Shown in pieces: positions 8,368 to 29,000 of a stretch of DNA of 64,000 nucleotides. A program made the translations under genes and the position numbers. The notes beneath the pieces are model-generated. The model saw nothing but the letters and a program-made list of their open reading frames with translations, searched no databases and was not told where the DNA came from. Position 1 is the first letter of the stretch. Every line of letters begins with the position of its first letter. The stretch lies in the NCBI RefSeq assembly GCF_056746865.1, contig NZ_CM163382.1; one strand, 5' to 3'.

Positions 8368-8514
8368 GATTCGCCTGAACATGCCCTTTTTTCGTAAGTA
8401 AGCAACATAAGCTGTCACGTTTTGTGATGGCTATTAGAAATTCCTATGCAACAACTGAAAAAAAATTACAAAAAGTGCTTTCTGAACTGAACAAAAAAGA
8501 GTAAAGTTAGTCGC

Positions 8515-8623
8515 GTAGGGTACAGAGGTAAGATGTTCTATCTTTCAGACCTTTTACTTCACGTAATCGGATTTGGCTGAATATTTTAGCCGCCCCAGTC
8601 AGTAATGACTGGGGCGTTTTTTA
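8515..8623 (+). ncRNA. spf: Spot 42 small RNA
   Basis: Sequence GTAGGGTACAGAGGTAAGATGTTCTATC...GCCGCCCCAGTCAGTAATGACTGGGGCGTTTTTTA matches Spot 42, ends in an intrinsic terminator; immediately downstream of polA. Confidence 0.85.
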
Positions 8624-8748: not shown

Positions 8749-9381
8749 TTATTCGCCGTCCTGCGTTTCTTCTACAGGCTGCATCTCGCTAAACCAGGTA
8801 TCCAGTTTCTGCCGCAGCTTGTCCACGCCTTGTTTCTTCAGTGAAGAGAACGTTTCAACCTGCACATCACCGTTAAACGCCAGCACCGCTTCACGCACCA
8901 TATTCAATTGCGCTTTACGTGCGCCGCTTGCCAGTTTGTCCGCTTTGGTCAGCAGCACCAGCACGGCGATATTGCTGTCTACCGCCCACTCAATCATCTG
9001 CTGATCCAAATCTTTCAGCGGATGGCGAATATCCATTAGCACCACCAGACCTTGCAGGCTCTGACGTTTTTCGAGGTATTCGCCGAGCGCGCGCTGCCAT
9101 TTGCGCTTCATCTCTTCCGGGACTTCCGCGTAGCCATAGCCGGGCAAGTCAACCAGACGCTTGCCGTCAGCCACTTCAAACAGGTTGATAAGCTGGGTGC
9201 GCCCTGGGGTTTTTGAGGTCCGCGCCAGGCTTTTCTGGTTAGTCAGCGTGTTCAGCGCGCTGGATTTACCTGCGTTGGAACGGCCTGCAAAAGCCACTTC
9301 AATTCCGGTATCGGAAGGTAAGTGGCGAATATCAGGCGCACTCATCACAAAATGCGTCTGTTGATAATTCAAATTAGTCAA
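8749..9381 (-). CDS. engB: Ribosome biogenesis GTPase EngB (YihA)
   Basis: 210 aa, G1 motif [10 protein letters not shown]3 DLPGYG. Confidence 0.9.
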
Positions 9382-9651
9382 AGCGGTCGTCTCCGTCAGT
9401 CAAAGCTTTGCGGCGATTATACCTGAACCATAATAAAAGGCGGATTTTTCGGCGTGAGCGTTGTAAGTAAAAGCCATACGCTTTGTGAGACATTGCCGAT
9501 AGTCTTTATGCGAAATAGCAGAGAAAATTCTGCGATGCATGTCAAATAAGCTATATAAATCAGTTAATTGCTTTTATATAAAACTCTGAAAATGTGCAAA
9601 TACTGATGGCGGTTGATTGTTTGTTTAAAGCAAAGGCGTAAAGTAGCACCC

Positions 9652-9897
9652 ATAGAGCGAGGACGCTAACAGGAACAATGACTCAGGATGAGGGTCAGGA
9701 GCGCCAGGAGGCGAAGACAGAGGATTGTCAGGAAGACAAACGTCCGGAGACGTAATTAAACGGAAATGGAATCAACACGGATTGTTCCGGCTAATGGAAA
9801 AACAGGGTGTGTTGGCGGCCTGCAAGGATTGTAAGACCCGTTAAGGGTTATGAGTCAGGAAAAAAGGCGACAGAGTAATCTGTCGCCTTTTTTCTTT
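9652..9897 (+). ncRNA. csrC: CsrC, CsrA-sequestering small RNA
   Basis: About 245 nt with many GGA motifs in AGGA/CAGGA contexts, ending in hairpin AAGGCGACAGAGTAATCTGTCGCCTTTTTT; between engB and yihI. Ends are approximate. Confidence 0.75.
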
Positions 9898-9962
9898 GCT
9901 TGCTTTCTGTTAGATTCCGCCGCAAATCTATACTGAATAAAACGGCTAAAAGACGAACCATT

Positions 9963-10472
9963 ATGAAACCATCATCTTCAAACTCACGCAGCAAAGGTCA
10001 TGCAAAAGCGCGTCGAAAAACACGCGAGGAGCTGGATCAGGAAGCTCGTGACCGTAAGCGTCAGAAAAAACGTCGTGGTCATGCGCCGGGCAGCCGCGCA
10101 GCGGGCGGTAACACCACGTCAGGCAGCAAAGGCCAGAACGCACCGAAAGATCCACGTATTGGCAGTAAAACCCCTATTCCATTGGGCGTGACTGAAAAAG
10201 TCACCAAACAGCACAAACCGAAGAGTGAGAAACCTATGCTTTCACCGCAGGCGGAGTTGGAATTACTGGAAACGGATGAGCGTCTGGATGCGCTGCTGGA
10301 ACGTCTGGAAGCAGGCGAAACCCTGAGTGCCGAAGAGCAATCCTGGGTGGATGCCAAACTGGATCGTATTGATGAGTTGATGCAGAAACTCGGCCTCTCT
10401 TATGACGATGACGAAGAAGAGGAAGAAGACGAGAAGCAAGAAGACATGATGCGTCTGCTGCGGGGCAACTAA
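9963..10472 (+). CDS. yihI: Der GTPase-activating protein YihI
   Basis: 169 aa from ATG at 9963 ([12 protein letters not shown]...), basic N-terminus and acidic C-terminus; the track ORF start at 9900 would overlap the csrC terminator. Confidence 0.85.
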
Positions 10473-16639: not shown

Positions 16640-16720
16640 CGTGCAAAAGGGCTGCACCATGATATGAATGTTGCACCAATATAGTGCTTCAATGGAAACA
16701 TTAAGCACCATATTGGTGCA
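16640..16720. promoter_or_regulatory. NtrC binding sites upstream of glnA
   Basis: Palindrome GCACCATATTGGTGC at 16705-16719 plus additional TGCACCA half-site repeats. Confidence 0.6.
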
Positions 16721-16871
16721 ATGACCTTTGGATAACCCTTTTTATGCTCCGTGAAAGCGATCACAAAGGGACTCTGCAATACTTGTTTGCGGAGGATGTT
16801 TGTGATCCTGTTTTGTAGTGCGATTAATCCGTGTACAATAACGCGCTATTTCTAATGCCTGAGGCAAAGTT

Positions 16872-18695
16872 GTGATCGAAAAATTGCGTAATATCGCCAT
16901 CATCGCGCACGTAGACCATGGTAAAACCACCCTGGTAGACAAGCTGCTCCAACAATCCGGTACGTTCGACTCTCGTGCCGAAACCCAAGAGCGCGTGATG
17001 GACTCCAACGATTTGGAGAAAGAGCGTGGGATTACCATCCTCGCGAAAAACACCGCTATCAAATGGAATGATTACCGTATCAACATCGTTGATACCCCGG
17101 GGCACGCCGACTTCGGTGGTGAAGTTGAACGTGTAATGTCCATGGTAGACTCAGTGCTGCTGGTGGTTGACGCATTTGACGGCCCGATGCCGCAAACGCG
17201 CTTCGTAACCAAAAAAGCGTTTGCTTACGGCCTGAAGCCGATTGTTGTTATCAACAAAGTTGACCGCCCTGGCGCGCGTCCTGATTGGGTTGTGGATCAG
17301 GTATTCGATCTGTTCGTTAACCTCGACGCGACCGACGAGCAGCTGGACTTCCCGATCGTTTACGCTTCTGCGCTGAACGGTATCGCGGGTCTGGACCACG
17401 AAGATATGGCGGAAGACATGACCCCGCTGTATCAGGCGATTGTTGACCACGTTCCTGCGCCGGACGTTGACCTTGACGGTCCGTTCCAGATGCAGATTTC
17501 TCAGCTCGATTACAACAGCTATGTTGGCGTTATCGGCATTGGCCGCATCAAGCGCGGTAAAGTGAAGCCGAACCAGCAGGTCACTATCATCGATAGCGAA
17601 GGCAAAACCCGTAACGCGAAAGTCGGTAAAGTGCTGGGCCACCTCGGTCTGGAACGTATTGAAACCGATCTGGCGGAAGCTGGCGATATCGTGGCGATCA
17701 CGGGCCTGGGCGAACTGAACATTTCTGACACCGTTTGCGACACGCAAAACGTTGAAGCGCTGCCGGCACTCTCCGTTGATGAGCCGACCGTTTCTATGTT
17801 CTTCTGCGTTAACACCTCGCCGTTCTGCGGTAAAGAAGGTAAGTTCGTAACGTCTCGTCAGATCCTGGATCGTCTGAACAAAGAACTGGTACACAACGTT
17901 GCGCTGCGCGTAGAAGAAACCGAAGACGCCGATGCGTTCCGCGTTTCTGGTCGTGGCGAACTGCACCTGTCTGTTCTTATCGAAAACATGCGTCGTGAAG
18001 GTTTCGAACTGGCGGTATCCCGTCCGAAAGTAATCTTCCGTGAAATCGACGGTCGTAAACAAGAGCCGTATGAAAACGTGACGCTGGACGTTGAAGAACA
18101 GCATCAGGGTTCTGTGATGCAGGCGCTGGGCGAACGTAAAGGCGACCTGAAAAACATGAATCCAGACGGTAAAGGCCGCGTACGTCTCGACTACGTGATC
18201 CCAAGCCGTGGTCTGATTGGCTTCCGTTCTGAGTTCATGACCATGACTTCCGGTACTGGTCTGCTGTACTCCACCTTCAGCCACTACGACGACGTACGTC
18301 CGGGTGAAGTGGGTCAGCGTCAGAACGGCGTACTGATCTCTAACGGTCAGGGTAAAGCGGTAGCGTTCGCGCTGTTCGGTCTGCAGGATCGCGGTAAGCT
18401 GTTCCTCGGTCACGGTGCAGAAGTTTACGAAGGTCAGATTATCGGTATTCACAGCCGCTCTAACGACCTGACTGTAAACTGCCTGACCGGTAAGAAACTG
18501 ACCAACATGCGTGCTTCCGGTACTGACGAAGCCGTTGTTCTGGTTCCGCCTATCCGCATGACTCTGGAACAAGCTCTGGAGTTCATCGATGATGACGAAC
18601 TGGTAGAAGTGACTCCAACCTCTATCCGTATTCGTAAACGTCACCTGACGGAAAACGATCGTCGCCGTGCCAACCGCGCACCGAAAGACGATTAA
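16872..18695 (+). CDS. typA: Ribosome-associated translational GTPase BipA/TypA
   Basis: 607 aa, GTG start, [10 protein letters not shown]1 motif, EF-G-like domains. Confidence 0.95.
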
Positions 18696-18911: not shown

Positions 18912-19622
18912 ATGGCGGAGAATCAATCCACCGTAGAAAATGCAAAAGAGAAACTGGATCGGTGGTTGAAAGATGGCATCACCACGCCGGGTGGAAAACT
19001 CCCTTCAGAAAGAGAGCTGGGAGAACTGCTGGGCATTAAACGTATGACGCTGCGCCAGGCGTTGTTGAACCTCGAGGCAGAATCCAAAATCTTCCGTAAG
19101 GATCGTAAGGGGTGGTTCGTGACCCAGCCGCGATTTAATTACAGTCCGGAGCTGTCAGCGAGCTTTCAGCGGGCCGCAATTGAGCAAGGACGAGAGCCTT
19201 CCTGGGGGTTTACCGAGAAAAACCGTACCAGCGATATTCCCGAGACGCTCGCGCCACTGATTGCAGTGACACCATCAACTGAACTCTATCGCATCACCGG
19301 CTGGGGGGCGCTGGAAGGACATAAAGTTTTCTATCACGAAACATATATTAATCCTGAAGTTGCTCCGGGTTTTATTGAACAACTTGAAAACCACTCATTT
19401 TCTGCAGTCTGGGAAAAGTGCTACCAAAAAGAGACGGTAGTAAAAAAATTGATTTTCAAACCCGTCAGAATGCCGGGCGATATCAGCAAGTATCTTGGCG
19501 GTTCTGTGGGTATGCCAGCGATCTTAATTGAAAAGCATCGCGCCGACCAGCAAGGCAATATTGTCCAGATAGATATTGAATATTGGCGATTTGAGGCCGT
19601 AGACCTCATCATTAATCTGTAG
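18912..19622 (+). CDS. yihL: GntR-family transcriptional regulator YihL
   Basis: 236 aa, N-terminal winged HTH, UTRA-like C-terminal domain. Confidence 0.85.
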   Translation: MAENQSTVENAKEKLDRWLKDGITTPGGKLPSERELGELLGIKRMTLRQALLNLEAESKIFRKDRKGWFVTQPRFNYSPELSASFQRAAIEQGREPSWGFTEKNRTSDIPETLAPLIAVTPSTELYRITGWGALEGHKVFYHETYINPEVAPGFIEQLENHSFSAVWEKCYQKETVVKKLIFKPVRMPGDISKYLGGSVGMPAILIEKHRADQQGNIVQIDIEYWRFEAVDLIINL

Positions 19623-19629
19623 GTGTTTT

Positions 19630-21871
<2,242 letters not shown>

Positions 21872-26963: not shown

Positions 26964-29000
26964 TTAGATGCTTTTTAACGACGCGAACAGTGCCGCCCAT
27001 TCGCTATCGGCGCGATAAAAGACCGGCGGCTTGCCGATGGGCGCATTAACGGTCACTTCCCCGCCCCGGAACGCTTCACCCGTCCAGGCGTGCACCCAGT
27101 TATCCTCCGGCAGATAGAGCGTCCAGTCGCTACGGCCTTCTTCATGCACCGGAGCGACCAGAATGTCGCGACCTAACAGGTACTGATATTTCAGGGTGTA
27201 AGTGTGCGCATCGTCTTCGTAATGCAGGAACAGCGGGCGCATGACCGGCAGACCGGACTTCGCATTCAGCGCGACGGCCTCTTTCAGGTAAGGTTTCAGG
27301 GTGGTGAAGACGGTGGTCATACGGGCAAAATGGGCGATAGTTTCCGCGTCGCCGTCAAACTGCCAGTTGTCGCCCGGACGGTTGCCTTCGTGGGTGCGCA
27401 TCATCGGCGTGAAGGCGCTGAAATCACACCAGCGCAGTAGCAGCTCTTTGCTGCGCTTCATCTCAAACAGGGTGGTGTAACCGCCAATGTCGCTGTGATG
27501 CAGGCCATGTCCGGTCATTGCCAGCGACAGCGCCGCCGGGACAACCGACGCCAGGCCATCGTCCAGACTCCAGTCGACGTTCTGGTCACCCGCCCACATC
27601 ATGGTGGAGTATTTCTGGCTACCGGTAGAACCGGCGCGCATAAAGAAAAGGATCTCGCCGAGCTTGCCCGTTTCTTCAAGGGCTTCGTAGTTACATTTCG
27701 CCCACAGCGCTGGCCAGGCGTTATGCATAATCTCCGCGCTGACGCCGTTATGCAGGTACGTGTCGGTGGGCAGATACTCGCCGAAGTCAGCCATCCAGCC
27801 GCCGCAGCCAAGTTCAATCATGTTCTTTTTGATCACTTCCTTGAACCAGGCGTAGGCTTCTGGATTGGTGAGGTCGACAACGCCGCCATAGAACTCGCCA
27901 AACTCCACCAGATAGTCGCCGCCAGAGGCATCTTTTGCCAGATAACCGCGCTTTGCCGCCTCTTCGCAGAGATCTTTATCGCTGGCGACATACGGGTTGA
28001 TATAGGCCAGGAACTGCACGCCCTCTTTGTTCCACTGCTTAATACGTGAGTCCAGTTGCGGATAGTTTTCGCTGTTCCACTTCCAGTTCCACATTACGCG
28101 TTTGCCAAAAGAGGTCATACGGATCCCGGACCAGTCCTGCGCCCAGATGCCGTTAACCTTCACACCCGCGTTACGCATGGTGTCCAGTTTCTTCTGACAC
28201 ACTTCCGTCCCGCCCTGAATGCCGAGCGTTACCCCGTCATAAATCCAGTCGGGCAGTTCTGGCTGGCGTCCCAGCAGGGCAGTTAATTTTTCCAGCAGGG
28301 AGATGTATGTATCAGCACATTCAAAACGCAGCGTTGCTTTGTCTTCCCACAGCGCCAGTTCATGGTATTCCGGGGCGCTAAAGTCGAAGTTCATGTAGCA
28401 ACTGTTATCAACATGGCAGTAATACTTCTGCGTGCTGACAAACGTAGGCTGTGGGAAGAAAGTCCAGTAATAGTCGCCGCCCGCGTTCTCTTTGCAGTCG
28501 GCCTGCCAGGTGACATAGGTTTGCTTGTTGCGACCAACGCCTTGTTCACTGGTCCATAGCGGGAACGGTTTGCCGCGCAGATCGAAGTAGGAAAACTGTT
28601 CGCCGCAGCCGTAGATATGGTCCTCTGGTTGAGCGGCAAGGCGCAGCCAGATGCGGTTGTGGTTAAGGTTGTCGTTTTGTAGTTCCAGCAATAAACGGCC
28701 CTGATCGTCGGCAGAGATATTCAGCGTGGCGCTAATGTCAGAACCACGGCTGAAATGGATTAACCAACCATCCGGTGACTGGCTGACGGTAGCGTCGGTG
28801 AGCGCAATCTTCTCCTGCAATTTATCTTTAATGCTGAAATTACCGCGGAACATATCGATATCCGCTATACCTGAGCCAATCCATAAACAAGGATTATCTT
28901 TACTATGGGTTAAAATAAGACGGCCCTGAAAACGTAGGGTAAGACTGTCGTTATTCTGATGAAATTGAAAATCTAATAACTGTGGGCGTGGCGTATCCAT
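26964..29000 (-). CDS. yihQ: Sulfoquinovosidase (GH31 family)
   Basis: 678 aa, GH31 alpha-glucosidase-like catalytic region (WAQDWSG..., GDQNVDWS). Confidence 0.92.
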   Translation of the reverse strand: MDTPRPQLLDFQFHQNNDSLTLRFQGRLILTHSKDNPCLWIGSGIADIDMFRGNFSIKDKLQEKIALTDATVSQSPDGWLIHFSRGSDISATLNISADDQGRLLLELQNDNLNHNRIWLRLAAQPEDHIYGCGEQFSYFDLRGKPFPLWTSEQGVGRNKQTYVTWQADCKENAGGDYYWTFFPQPTFVSTQKYYCHVDNSCYMNFDFSAPEYHELALWEDKATLRFECADTYISLLEKLTALLGRQPELPDWIYDGVTLGIQGGTEVCQKKLDTMRNAGVKVNGIWAQDWSGIRMTSFGKRVMWNWKWNSENYPQLDSRIKQWNKEGVQFLAYINPYVASDKDLCEEAAKRGYLAKDASGGDYLVEFGEFYGGVVDLTNPEAYAWFKEVIKKNMIELGCGGWMADFGEYLPTDTYLHNGVSAEIMHNAWPALWAKCNYEALEETGKLGEILFFMRAGSTGSQKYSTMMWAGDQNVDWSLDDGLASVVPAALSLAMTGHGLHHSDIGGYTTLFEMKRSKELLLRWCDFSAFTPMMRTHEGNRPGDNWQFDGDAETIAHFARMTTVFTTLKPYLKEAVALNAKSGLPVMRPLFLHYEDDAHTYTLKYQYLLGRDILVAPVHEEGRSDWTLYLPEDNWVHAWTGEAFRGGEVTVNAPIGKPPVFYRADSEWAALFASLKSI

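Follow-up and report, generated by a model that had tools for sequence, protein, structure and literature searches.

CsrC has belonged to the textbook picture of Csr, a global regulatory system, since 2003. Both CsrC and CsrB offer multiple high-affinity CsrA sites, by which they keep CsrA away from the mRNAs that it targets. Both need BarA-UvrY for transcription, with stimulation by ppGpp/DksA; decay of either RNA requires RNase E and CsrD, with EIIA-Glc as the trigger when glucose is present, and when one of the two is lost the other becomes more abundant (PMC7652899; PMC5027483). CsrA binding and antagonism by CsrC are credited to Weilbacher et al. 2003, as cited in a review (PMC7652899), and direct repression of E. 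coli csrC by cAMP-CRP, in competition with UvrY, is as reported in PMC7591399. CLIP-seq of Salmonella CsrA found CsrB and CsrC to be the dominant ligands, with almost 40% of the peak reads, and the corresponding E. coli experiment placed a CsrA peak on CsrC (PMC5207318; PMC5694010).

The nearest relative of CsrC is CsrB of E. coli (RF00018), which falls in the same Rfam clan (CL00106), shares its architecture of GGA-bearing hairpins, and is likewise a multi-GGA CsrA sponge activated by BarA-UvrY and degraded via CsrD and RNase E. The two differ in size, CsrB being a 360-bp sRNA (PMC1488887) with 22 GGA motifs (PMC7652899) against the 246 nt and 14 GGA of the CsrC considered here; in location, the CsrB locus adjoining syd (PMC1488887, table) and the present one lying between yihA and yihI; and in upstream control, the UvrY repeat of CsrB being a near-perfect palindrome with IHF also needed, whereas csrC has no need of IHF (PMC4682653). 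Functional analogues are seen in RsmX, RsmY, and RsmZ of Pseudomonas and CsrB1-3 of Vibrio, which are also sponges for CsrA/RsmA with GGA in loops, under GacA/VarA (UvrY-type) control and with rho-independent terminators (PMC1488887). However, these have no sequence alignable with CsrC outside the GGA motifs, and belong to other Rfam families, with other loci and other upstream activator sites.

The 64,000-nt stretch of DNA that we analyzed (hereafter the window) contains at 9652-9897, on the plus strand, what is with near certainty csrC, the gene for the ~245-nt non-coding RNA CsrC of Escherichia coli. The initial annotation had read this segment as a ~245-nt non-coding, GGA-rich RNA between engB and yihI and had matched it to CsrC; both statements hold, the gene occupying 246 nt, from the +1 A through the end of the terminator U-tract, in a 581-nt intergenic gap with no conserved ORF, and the coordinates proposed for it agreeing exactly with the extent of the curated K-12 gene. 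A whole-window Rfam scan returned the CsrC model (RF00084) at 9652-9905 (+) with 277.9 bits (gathering score 61; E=1.2e-87), the covariance model being covered over its full length (model positions 1-255 of 255). The gap extends from the divergent yihA/engB (8749-9381, -; a 210-aa ORF annotated as yihA in strain 7/2 and K-12) to yihI (9963-10472, +), which codes for the Der GTPase-activating protein, in the same order as in K-12 MG1655 (NC_000913.3), where the ncRNA csrC (b4457, 246 nt, 4051036-4051281) is flanked by yihA and yihI. Alignment of the 584-nt interval from the end of yihA to the yihI ATG recovered 245 of the 246 bases of b4457, the sole mismatch being T9795, which is an A in K-12, and two further differences that are both upstream of csrC. 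The K-12 and window versions are thus the same gene, with the same ends, flanking genes, UvrY repeat, promoter region, and terminator; the RNA is already known, and the window holds an ordinary E. coli allele of it with nothing new.

This allele belongs to a nearly ubiquitous locus, found in 5425 of 5426 complete E. coli genomes and at 99% identity or more in 5359 of them. Of 40 rows sampled at even spacing from the E. coli ranking, 11 were 100% identical to the window, and those at 99.6%, one K-12 strain among them, were a single base away from it. In the 3' arm of the central stem, T9795 makes AUGGA out of the AAGGA of K-12, which leaves the GGA intact and the site in agreement with the AGGA/ARGGA motif of PMC1488887. 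We think it unlikely that this natural A/T polymorphism tunes one CsrA site. E. coli strain 7/2 is identical to the window over a 701-nt query around csrC (9400-10100). The csrC query matched 5489 places in the 5425 E. coli records, some genomes having two places and two of the places being on plasmids. A divergent version is seen in NZ_CP148581.1 (E. coli Z1322HEC0002, 1197-1450), with 13 GGA and only 87% identity to the window allele; it is approximately equidistant (87-88%) from the Escherichia, Salmonella, and Citrobacter copies, and its flanking YihA has the same protein accession as that of strain 7/2, a pattern suggestive of local recombination or of an allele of ancient origin.

Orthologues were collected from species-representative genomes by one pattern scan with GCGCCAGGAGGCGAA-N5-AGGA-N5-AGGA, which yielded 45 loci from at least 10 enterobacterial genera, including Citrobacter, Enterobacter, Salmonella, Leclercia, Lelliottia, Pseudocitrobacter, Superficieibacter, Silvania, and Huaxiibacter, along with other Escherichia species. 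The gene yihI lies downstream in 45/45 of these loci, and a divergent yihA lies upstream in all 42 with sequence reaching that far. Each copy has 13-16 GGA motifs, and 13 of the 14 GGA sites of the window are matched within ±4 alignment columns in all 46 sequences (the window and the 45 loci), three of the sites having been fixed beforehand by the search pattern. When the Rfam structure is mapped onto the 46-sequence alignment, 87% of cells pair, as against 39-48% when the partners are slid by 1-3 columns. In the MAFFT alignment, members of the Enterobacter/Leclercia clade are shifted out of register at hairpin 2 and at the central stem, which lowers the apparent pairing there to 65-66%; taken by itself, the central stem has 66-76% of its cells paired. 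Covariation support is modest since most stems are invariant and double changes occur in only four pairs.

The region had been described earlier as packed with GGA in AGGA/CAGGA contexts, and the counts bear this out: the 246 nt hold 14 GGA, viz., nine AGGA (six of them CAGGA), four A[C/U]GGA, and one CCGGA, so that 13 of the 14 fit AGGA or A[C/U]GGA. Sliding 246-nt windows over the plus strand of the 64 kb have a mean of 3.2 GGA (sd 1.84), and the maximum of 14, ~5.9 sd over the mean, is reached only in 49 overlapping windows at csrC, which therefore has the top plus-strand density. When the region is compared with its own dinucleotide-preserving shuffles, the excess is smaller (mean 8.85, sd 1.97; 53 of 5000 shuffles reach 14), because the region is already GG/GA-rich and purine-rich overall. 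The minus-strand maximum is 12 GGA in 246 nt at ~28050-28298. This segment was rejected as a second CsrA sponge: it falls inside a 678-aa ORF (26964-29000, -), and its GGA density is accordingly a matter of coding composition.

The folded state of these motifs was assessed by projecting the Rfam consensus structure onto the window sequence. By this consensus six GGAs are situated in hairpin loops (9661, 9686, 9707, 9722, 9746, and 9826), five in single-stranded linkers (9672, 9698, 9731, 9762, and 9768), and three are partly or fully paired (9779, 9796, and 9858). The loop placement anticipated for the motifs thus takes the form of a preference: 11/14 are unpaired, whereas the share among triplets overall is 34% (hypergeometric P=7e-4), and 6/14 fall in hairpin loops, where 12% of triplets overall are found (P=3e-3). 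Consistent with this, the partition function gives a mean unpaired probability of 0.61 at GGA against 0.40 overall. The RNA as a whole is markedly stable, with a minimum free energy (MFE) of -87.7 kcal/mol compared to -59.5±4.0 for shuffles (z=-6.98). Only 7/14 GGA are fully unpaired in the single-sequence MFE fold, because a long-range helix (~9657-9675 with ~9805-9825) pairs some of them; we did not adopt this helix as it is absent from the Rfam consensus and was not recovered by RNAalifold.

The individual elements, all on the plus strand, begin with hairpin 1 (9656-9667; Rfam consensus and RNAalifold), which has GGA 9661 in its loop and a closing pair that has changed in a compensatory manner, 25 sequences having G-C and 21 having A-U. 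Hairpin 2 (9679-9697; Rfam consensus and MFE) displays GGA 9686 in a CAGGAUG loop and keeps it in 45/46 orthologues. Hairpin 3 (9702-9713, GCGCCAGGAGGCGA), with GGA 9707 in the loop at an unpaired probability of 1.0, is found in the Rfam consensus, the MFE fold, and the RNAalifold prediction, and is invariant across the 46 sequences, although this segment belonged to the search pattern. It is followed by hairpin 4 (9716-9729; Rfam consensus and RNAalifold), whose loop GGA (9722) is unpaired with a probability of 0.94, and by hairpin 5 (9740-9753, ACGUCCGGAGACGU; Rfam consensus, MFE, and RNAalifold), with GGA 9746 in the loop and one pair that has changed in a compensatory manner (U-A in 26 sequences, C-G in 19). 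A long interrupted central stem (9773-9814; Rfam consensus) encompasses T9795 and the partly paired GGAs at 9779 and 9796, and shows a further compensatory change (C-G in 19, A-U in 18). Beyond it, a short hairpin (9822-9832; Rfam consensus) has GGA 9826 in an AAGGAU loop, and this GGA occupies the same columns in 46/46 sequences. RNAalifold on its own recovers hairpins 1, 3, 4, and 5, a hairpin at 9836-9848, and the terminator, so that four of the five consensus hairpins recovered by it are those with GGA in the loop. Its pairing of columns 45-50 with 266-270 was set aside as an artefact of the included flanking bases, being beyond the 3' end of the transcript.

The 3' end is formed by an intrinsic terminator (9857-9896, +; terminator scan), with an A6-GGCGACAGA / UCUGUCGCC-U6 stem and a 4-nt loop. 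The strength earlier ascribed to it is apparent in its 18 pairs, seven of them G-C, with the U6 run within the 3' arm followed by CUUU; 99% of cells pair in this element across the 46 sequences.

Upstream of the gene, the window has an exact match to the published UvrY-P-binding inverted repeat TGTGAGACATTGCCGATA (9484-9501, +; -168 to -151), an 18-nt imperfect repeat with this single exact occurrence in the window. Zere et al. identified it as the UvrY-P site of E. coli csrC, with ChIP-exo crosslinking from -223 to -143 and with DNase I footprinting that shows protection of the upstream site (PMC4682653). Of 43 orthologous upstream regions, 29 retain its TGTGAGA, at -153 to -168. The TGTAAG half-site described in the same study (PMC4682653) is present 16 bp upstream of the inverted repeat (9462-9467, +; -190) and at the matching position in most orthologues. 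A sigma-70 consensus scan of 9350-10050 found no promoter above threshold, TAAAGT scoring below it; hence, the core elements were assigned from their distance to +1 and from conservation in the 43 upstream regions. On these grounds the -10 element would be TAAAGT (9639-9644, +), which ends 7 nt before the annotated +1 and is matched in nearly all of the 43, with the distance unchanged, by GTAAAGT or by a sequence one base away from it, and the weak -35-like element would be TTGTTT (9617-9622, +), 16 nt upstream of the -10, with a cTTGT conserved in the orthologues. TTGTTT agrees with TTGACA at 3/6 positions, as expected of an activator-dependent promoter, and we accordingly predict that the csrC promoter is weak and activator-dependent.

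Kulkarni et al. 2006 (PMC1488887) set out five sequence criteria for CsrA-sequestering sRNAs, and the locus displays each of the features concerned, i.e., (i) an intergenic location, (ii) a high concentration of AGGA/ARGGA, (iii) a Rho-independent terminator, (iv) GGA motifs that are repeatedly unpaired, and (v) a conserved csrC-type UvrY/SirA upstream site. The earlier assignment of a CsrA-sponge signature to the region is thereby sustained. Because the window allele shares 245/246 bases with K-12 CsrC, we infer for it the same multivalent binding and antagonism of CsrA; its UvrY activation and its decay via CsrD and RNase E are likewise projected from publications on K-12 and Salmonella. According to the csrC literature, CsrA dimers bind GGA-containing sites, and a single CsrC would hence sequester several dimers, keeping CsrA off lower-affinity mRNAs such as glgC and pgaA and relieving the CsrA-mediated repression or activation. 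Transcription would proceed from the weak sigma-70-type promoter upon activation by phosphorylated UvrY of the BarA-UvrY system, which responds to acetate, formate, and other short-chain carboxylates, with ppGpp/DksA providing additional stimulation. The RNA would be short-lived, undergoing CsrD-dependent decay by RNase E that unphosphorylated EIIA-Glc would stimulate when glucose is present, and it would be partly redundant with the larger CsrB, the loss of either raising the other.

A reading of the locus as a CsrB-type paralogue or a generic CsrB/RsmB clan member, and not CsrC proper, could draw on the common clan (CL00106) and the GGA-hairpin architecture of the two RNAs. We consider it vanishingly improbable, given that the CsrC model is the best within the clan and is matched end to end, that 246 nt and 14 GGA compare poorly with the 360 bp (PMC1488887) and 22 GGA (PMC7652899) of CsrB, and that the yihA-yihI position is that of csrC, not a syd-adjacent one, with 245/246 identity to b4457. 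It is also very improbable that a small protein is, or formerly was, encoded here, as the RefSeq annotation would have it. PGAP places a "hypothetical protein" pseudogene on CsrC, at ~9678-9844 (+) in the window (equivalently 1779-1945 in L001 and 1220-1389 in L048, i.e., NZ_CP148581.1), with the label "frameshifted; internal stop" in every RefSeq record shown, and a 39-aa TTG ORF does exist at 9725-9844. However, the annotation itself requires frameshifts and stops, and this ORF, the only internal one of at least 30 aa in 9652-9897, does not keep its frame or ends in other genera. Over the 46 orthologues the longest internal ORF shifts in frame, start, and end, giving unrelated peptides of 18-63 aa, whereas the GGA sites and stems are retained at the RNA level; moreover, the curated K-12 record lists the ncRNA alone. 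There being no conserved frame among the 46 orthologues, we rejected the coding reading, and since the internal ORFs are not conserved across genera, the PGAP pseudogene is a systematic annotation artefact. PGAP-annotated E. coli RefSeq genomes carry this pseudogene directly on CsrC without a csrC ncRNA feature, only the curated K-12 MG1655 naming csrC; the artefact affects thousands of E. coli RefSeq records, in which the region should be labelled as the ncRNA csrC and not as a CDS.

The third alternative concerns the downstream gene, and it would have the region act chiefly in cis as a yihI leader, read-through producing a GGA-rich 5' UTR under CsrA control. It is suggested by the shared strand of csrC and yihI, by the distance of 63-70 nt from the terminator U-run to the yihI ATG in nearly all of the 45 genomes, and by the post-terminator sequence CTTTGCTTGCTTTCTG, which is highly conserved across at least 10 genera. 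Against it stand the very strong terminator, with its 18-pair stem and U-run and pairing in 99% of cells across genera, published work presenting CsrC as a discrete, short-lived sRNA (PMC7652899; PMC5027483), and a TATACT (9929-9934, +) between the csrC terminator and the yihI ATG, which is conserved in other genera and would be a plausible separate -10 element of yihI, with its promoter packed against the terminator. We therefore accord the leader reading scarcely any probability and retain csrC as a gene for a discrete sponge RNA; any read-through into yihI would add to the sponge function and not replace it. We think it unlikely, too, that the tight csrC-yihI arrangement is itself functional, with partial read-through or an overlap of terminator and promoter coupling YihI to the Csr system. 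YihI stimulates the GTPase activity of Der and has a role in assembling the 50S ribosome, and such a coupling, if true, would link its expression to Csr. The 20 nt right after the csrC terminator (CTTTGCTTGCTTTCTGYTAG) are almost invariant.

The same spacing bears on the yihI start. The longest yihI ORF begins at TTG 9900, 3 nt past the annotated 3' end of csrC (9897), and the initial annotation favored ATG 9963 in part on the argument that the 9900 start would run into the csrC terminator. The preference for 9963 is upheld, being the start annotated both in K-12 and by PGAP (a 169-aa protein). The argument itself needs a small correction: the 9900 start abuts the terminator with no overlap of the stem, and lies within the conserved U-rich tail, which is included in the Rfam match as far as 9905. 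Further, the conserved YihI N-terminus MK(P/K/S/T)... begins at the ATG equivalent to 9963 in other genera, most orthologues have an in-frame stop 9-27 nt upstream of that ATG, and a TTG at -63 is present in only 2 of the 45, viz., Escherichia whittamii and one MAG, so that the TTG extension is not conserved. If TATACT serves as the -10 element, the yihI transcription start would fall downstream of 9900. We accordingly suggest that yihI be annotated from ATG 9963 and not from the longest-ORF TTG at 9900.

Several other features were noted elsewhere in the window. Spot 42 (spf) lies at 8505-8623 (+), between polA and yihA, with 122.8 bits to its Rfam model; a small protein within it, SpfP, is now likewise included in the K-12 record. 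In the yih cluster, the gene yihM, for a sugar phosphate isomerase/epimerase, is interrupted at 19630-21871 by the IS3-family element ISEc31, which leaves two pieces (19630-20025 and 21257-21871), with the IS ORFs between them on the minus strand; a match across both yihM/ISEc31 junctions is seen in only 138 of 5426 genomes, and an Rfam "isrC" match at 21054-21176 (-) falls inside ISEc31. In strain 7/2, a gene for an IS200C transposase separates typA from yihL (6890-7348 in L049). A yihL-sized 236-aa ORF of the window starts at 18912, ~217 nt after the end of a typA-sized ORF at 18695, and the window thus appears to be without the IS200C insertion. Three additional Rfam matches all score above their gathering thresholds: the ES222 sRNA at 16683-16790 (+; 133 bits), placed upstream of and overlapping the start of a 607-aa ORF (16872-18695); naRNA4 at 61020-61097 (-; 78.6 bits); and SECIS_3 at 46767-46825 (-; 84 bits), a selenocysteine insertion element, which implies that the minus strand carries a selenoprotein gene at this place.
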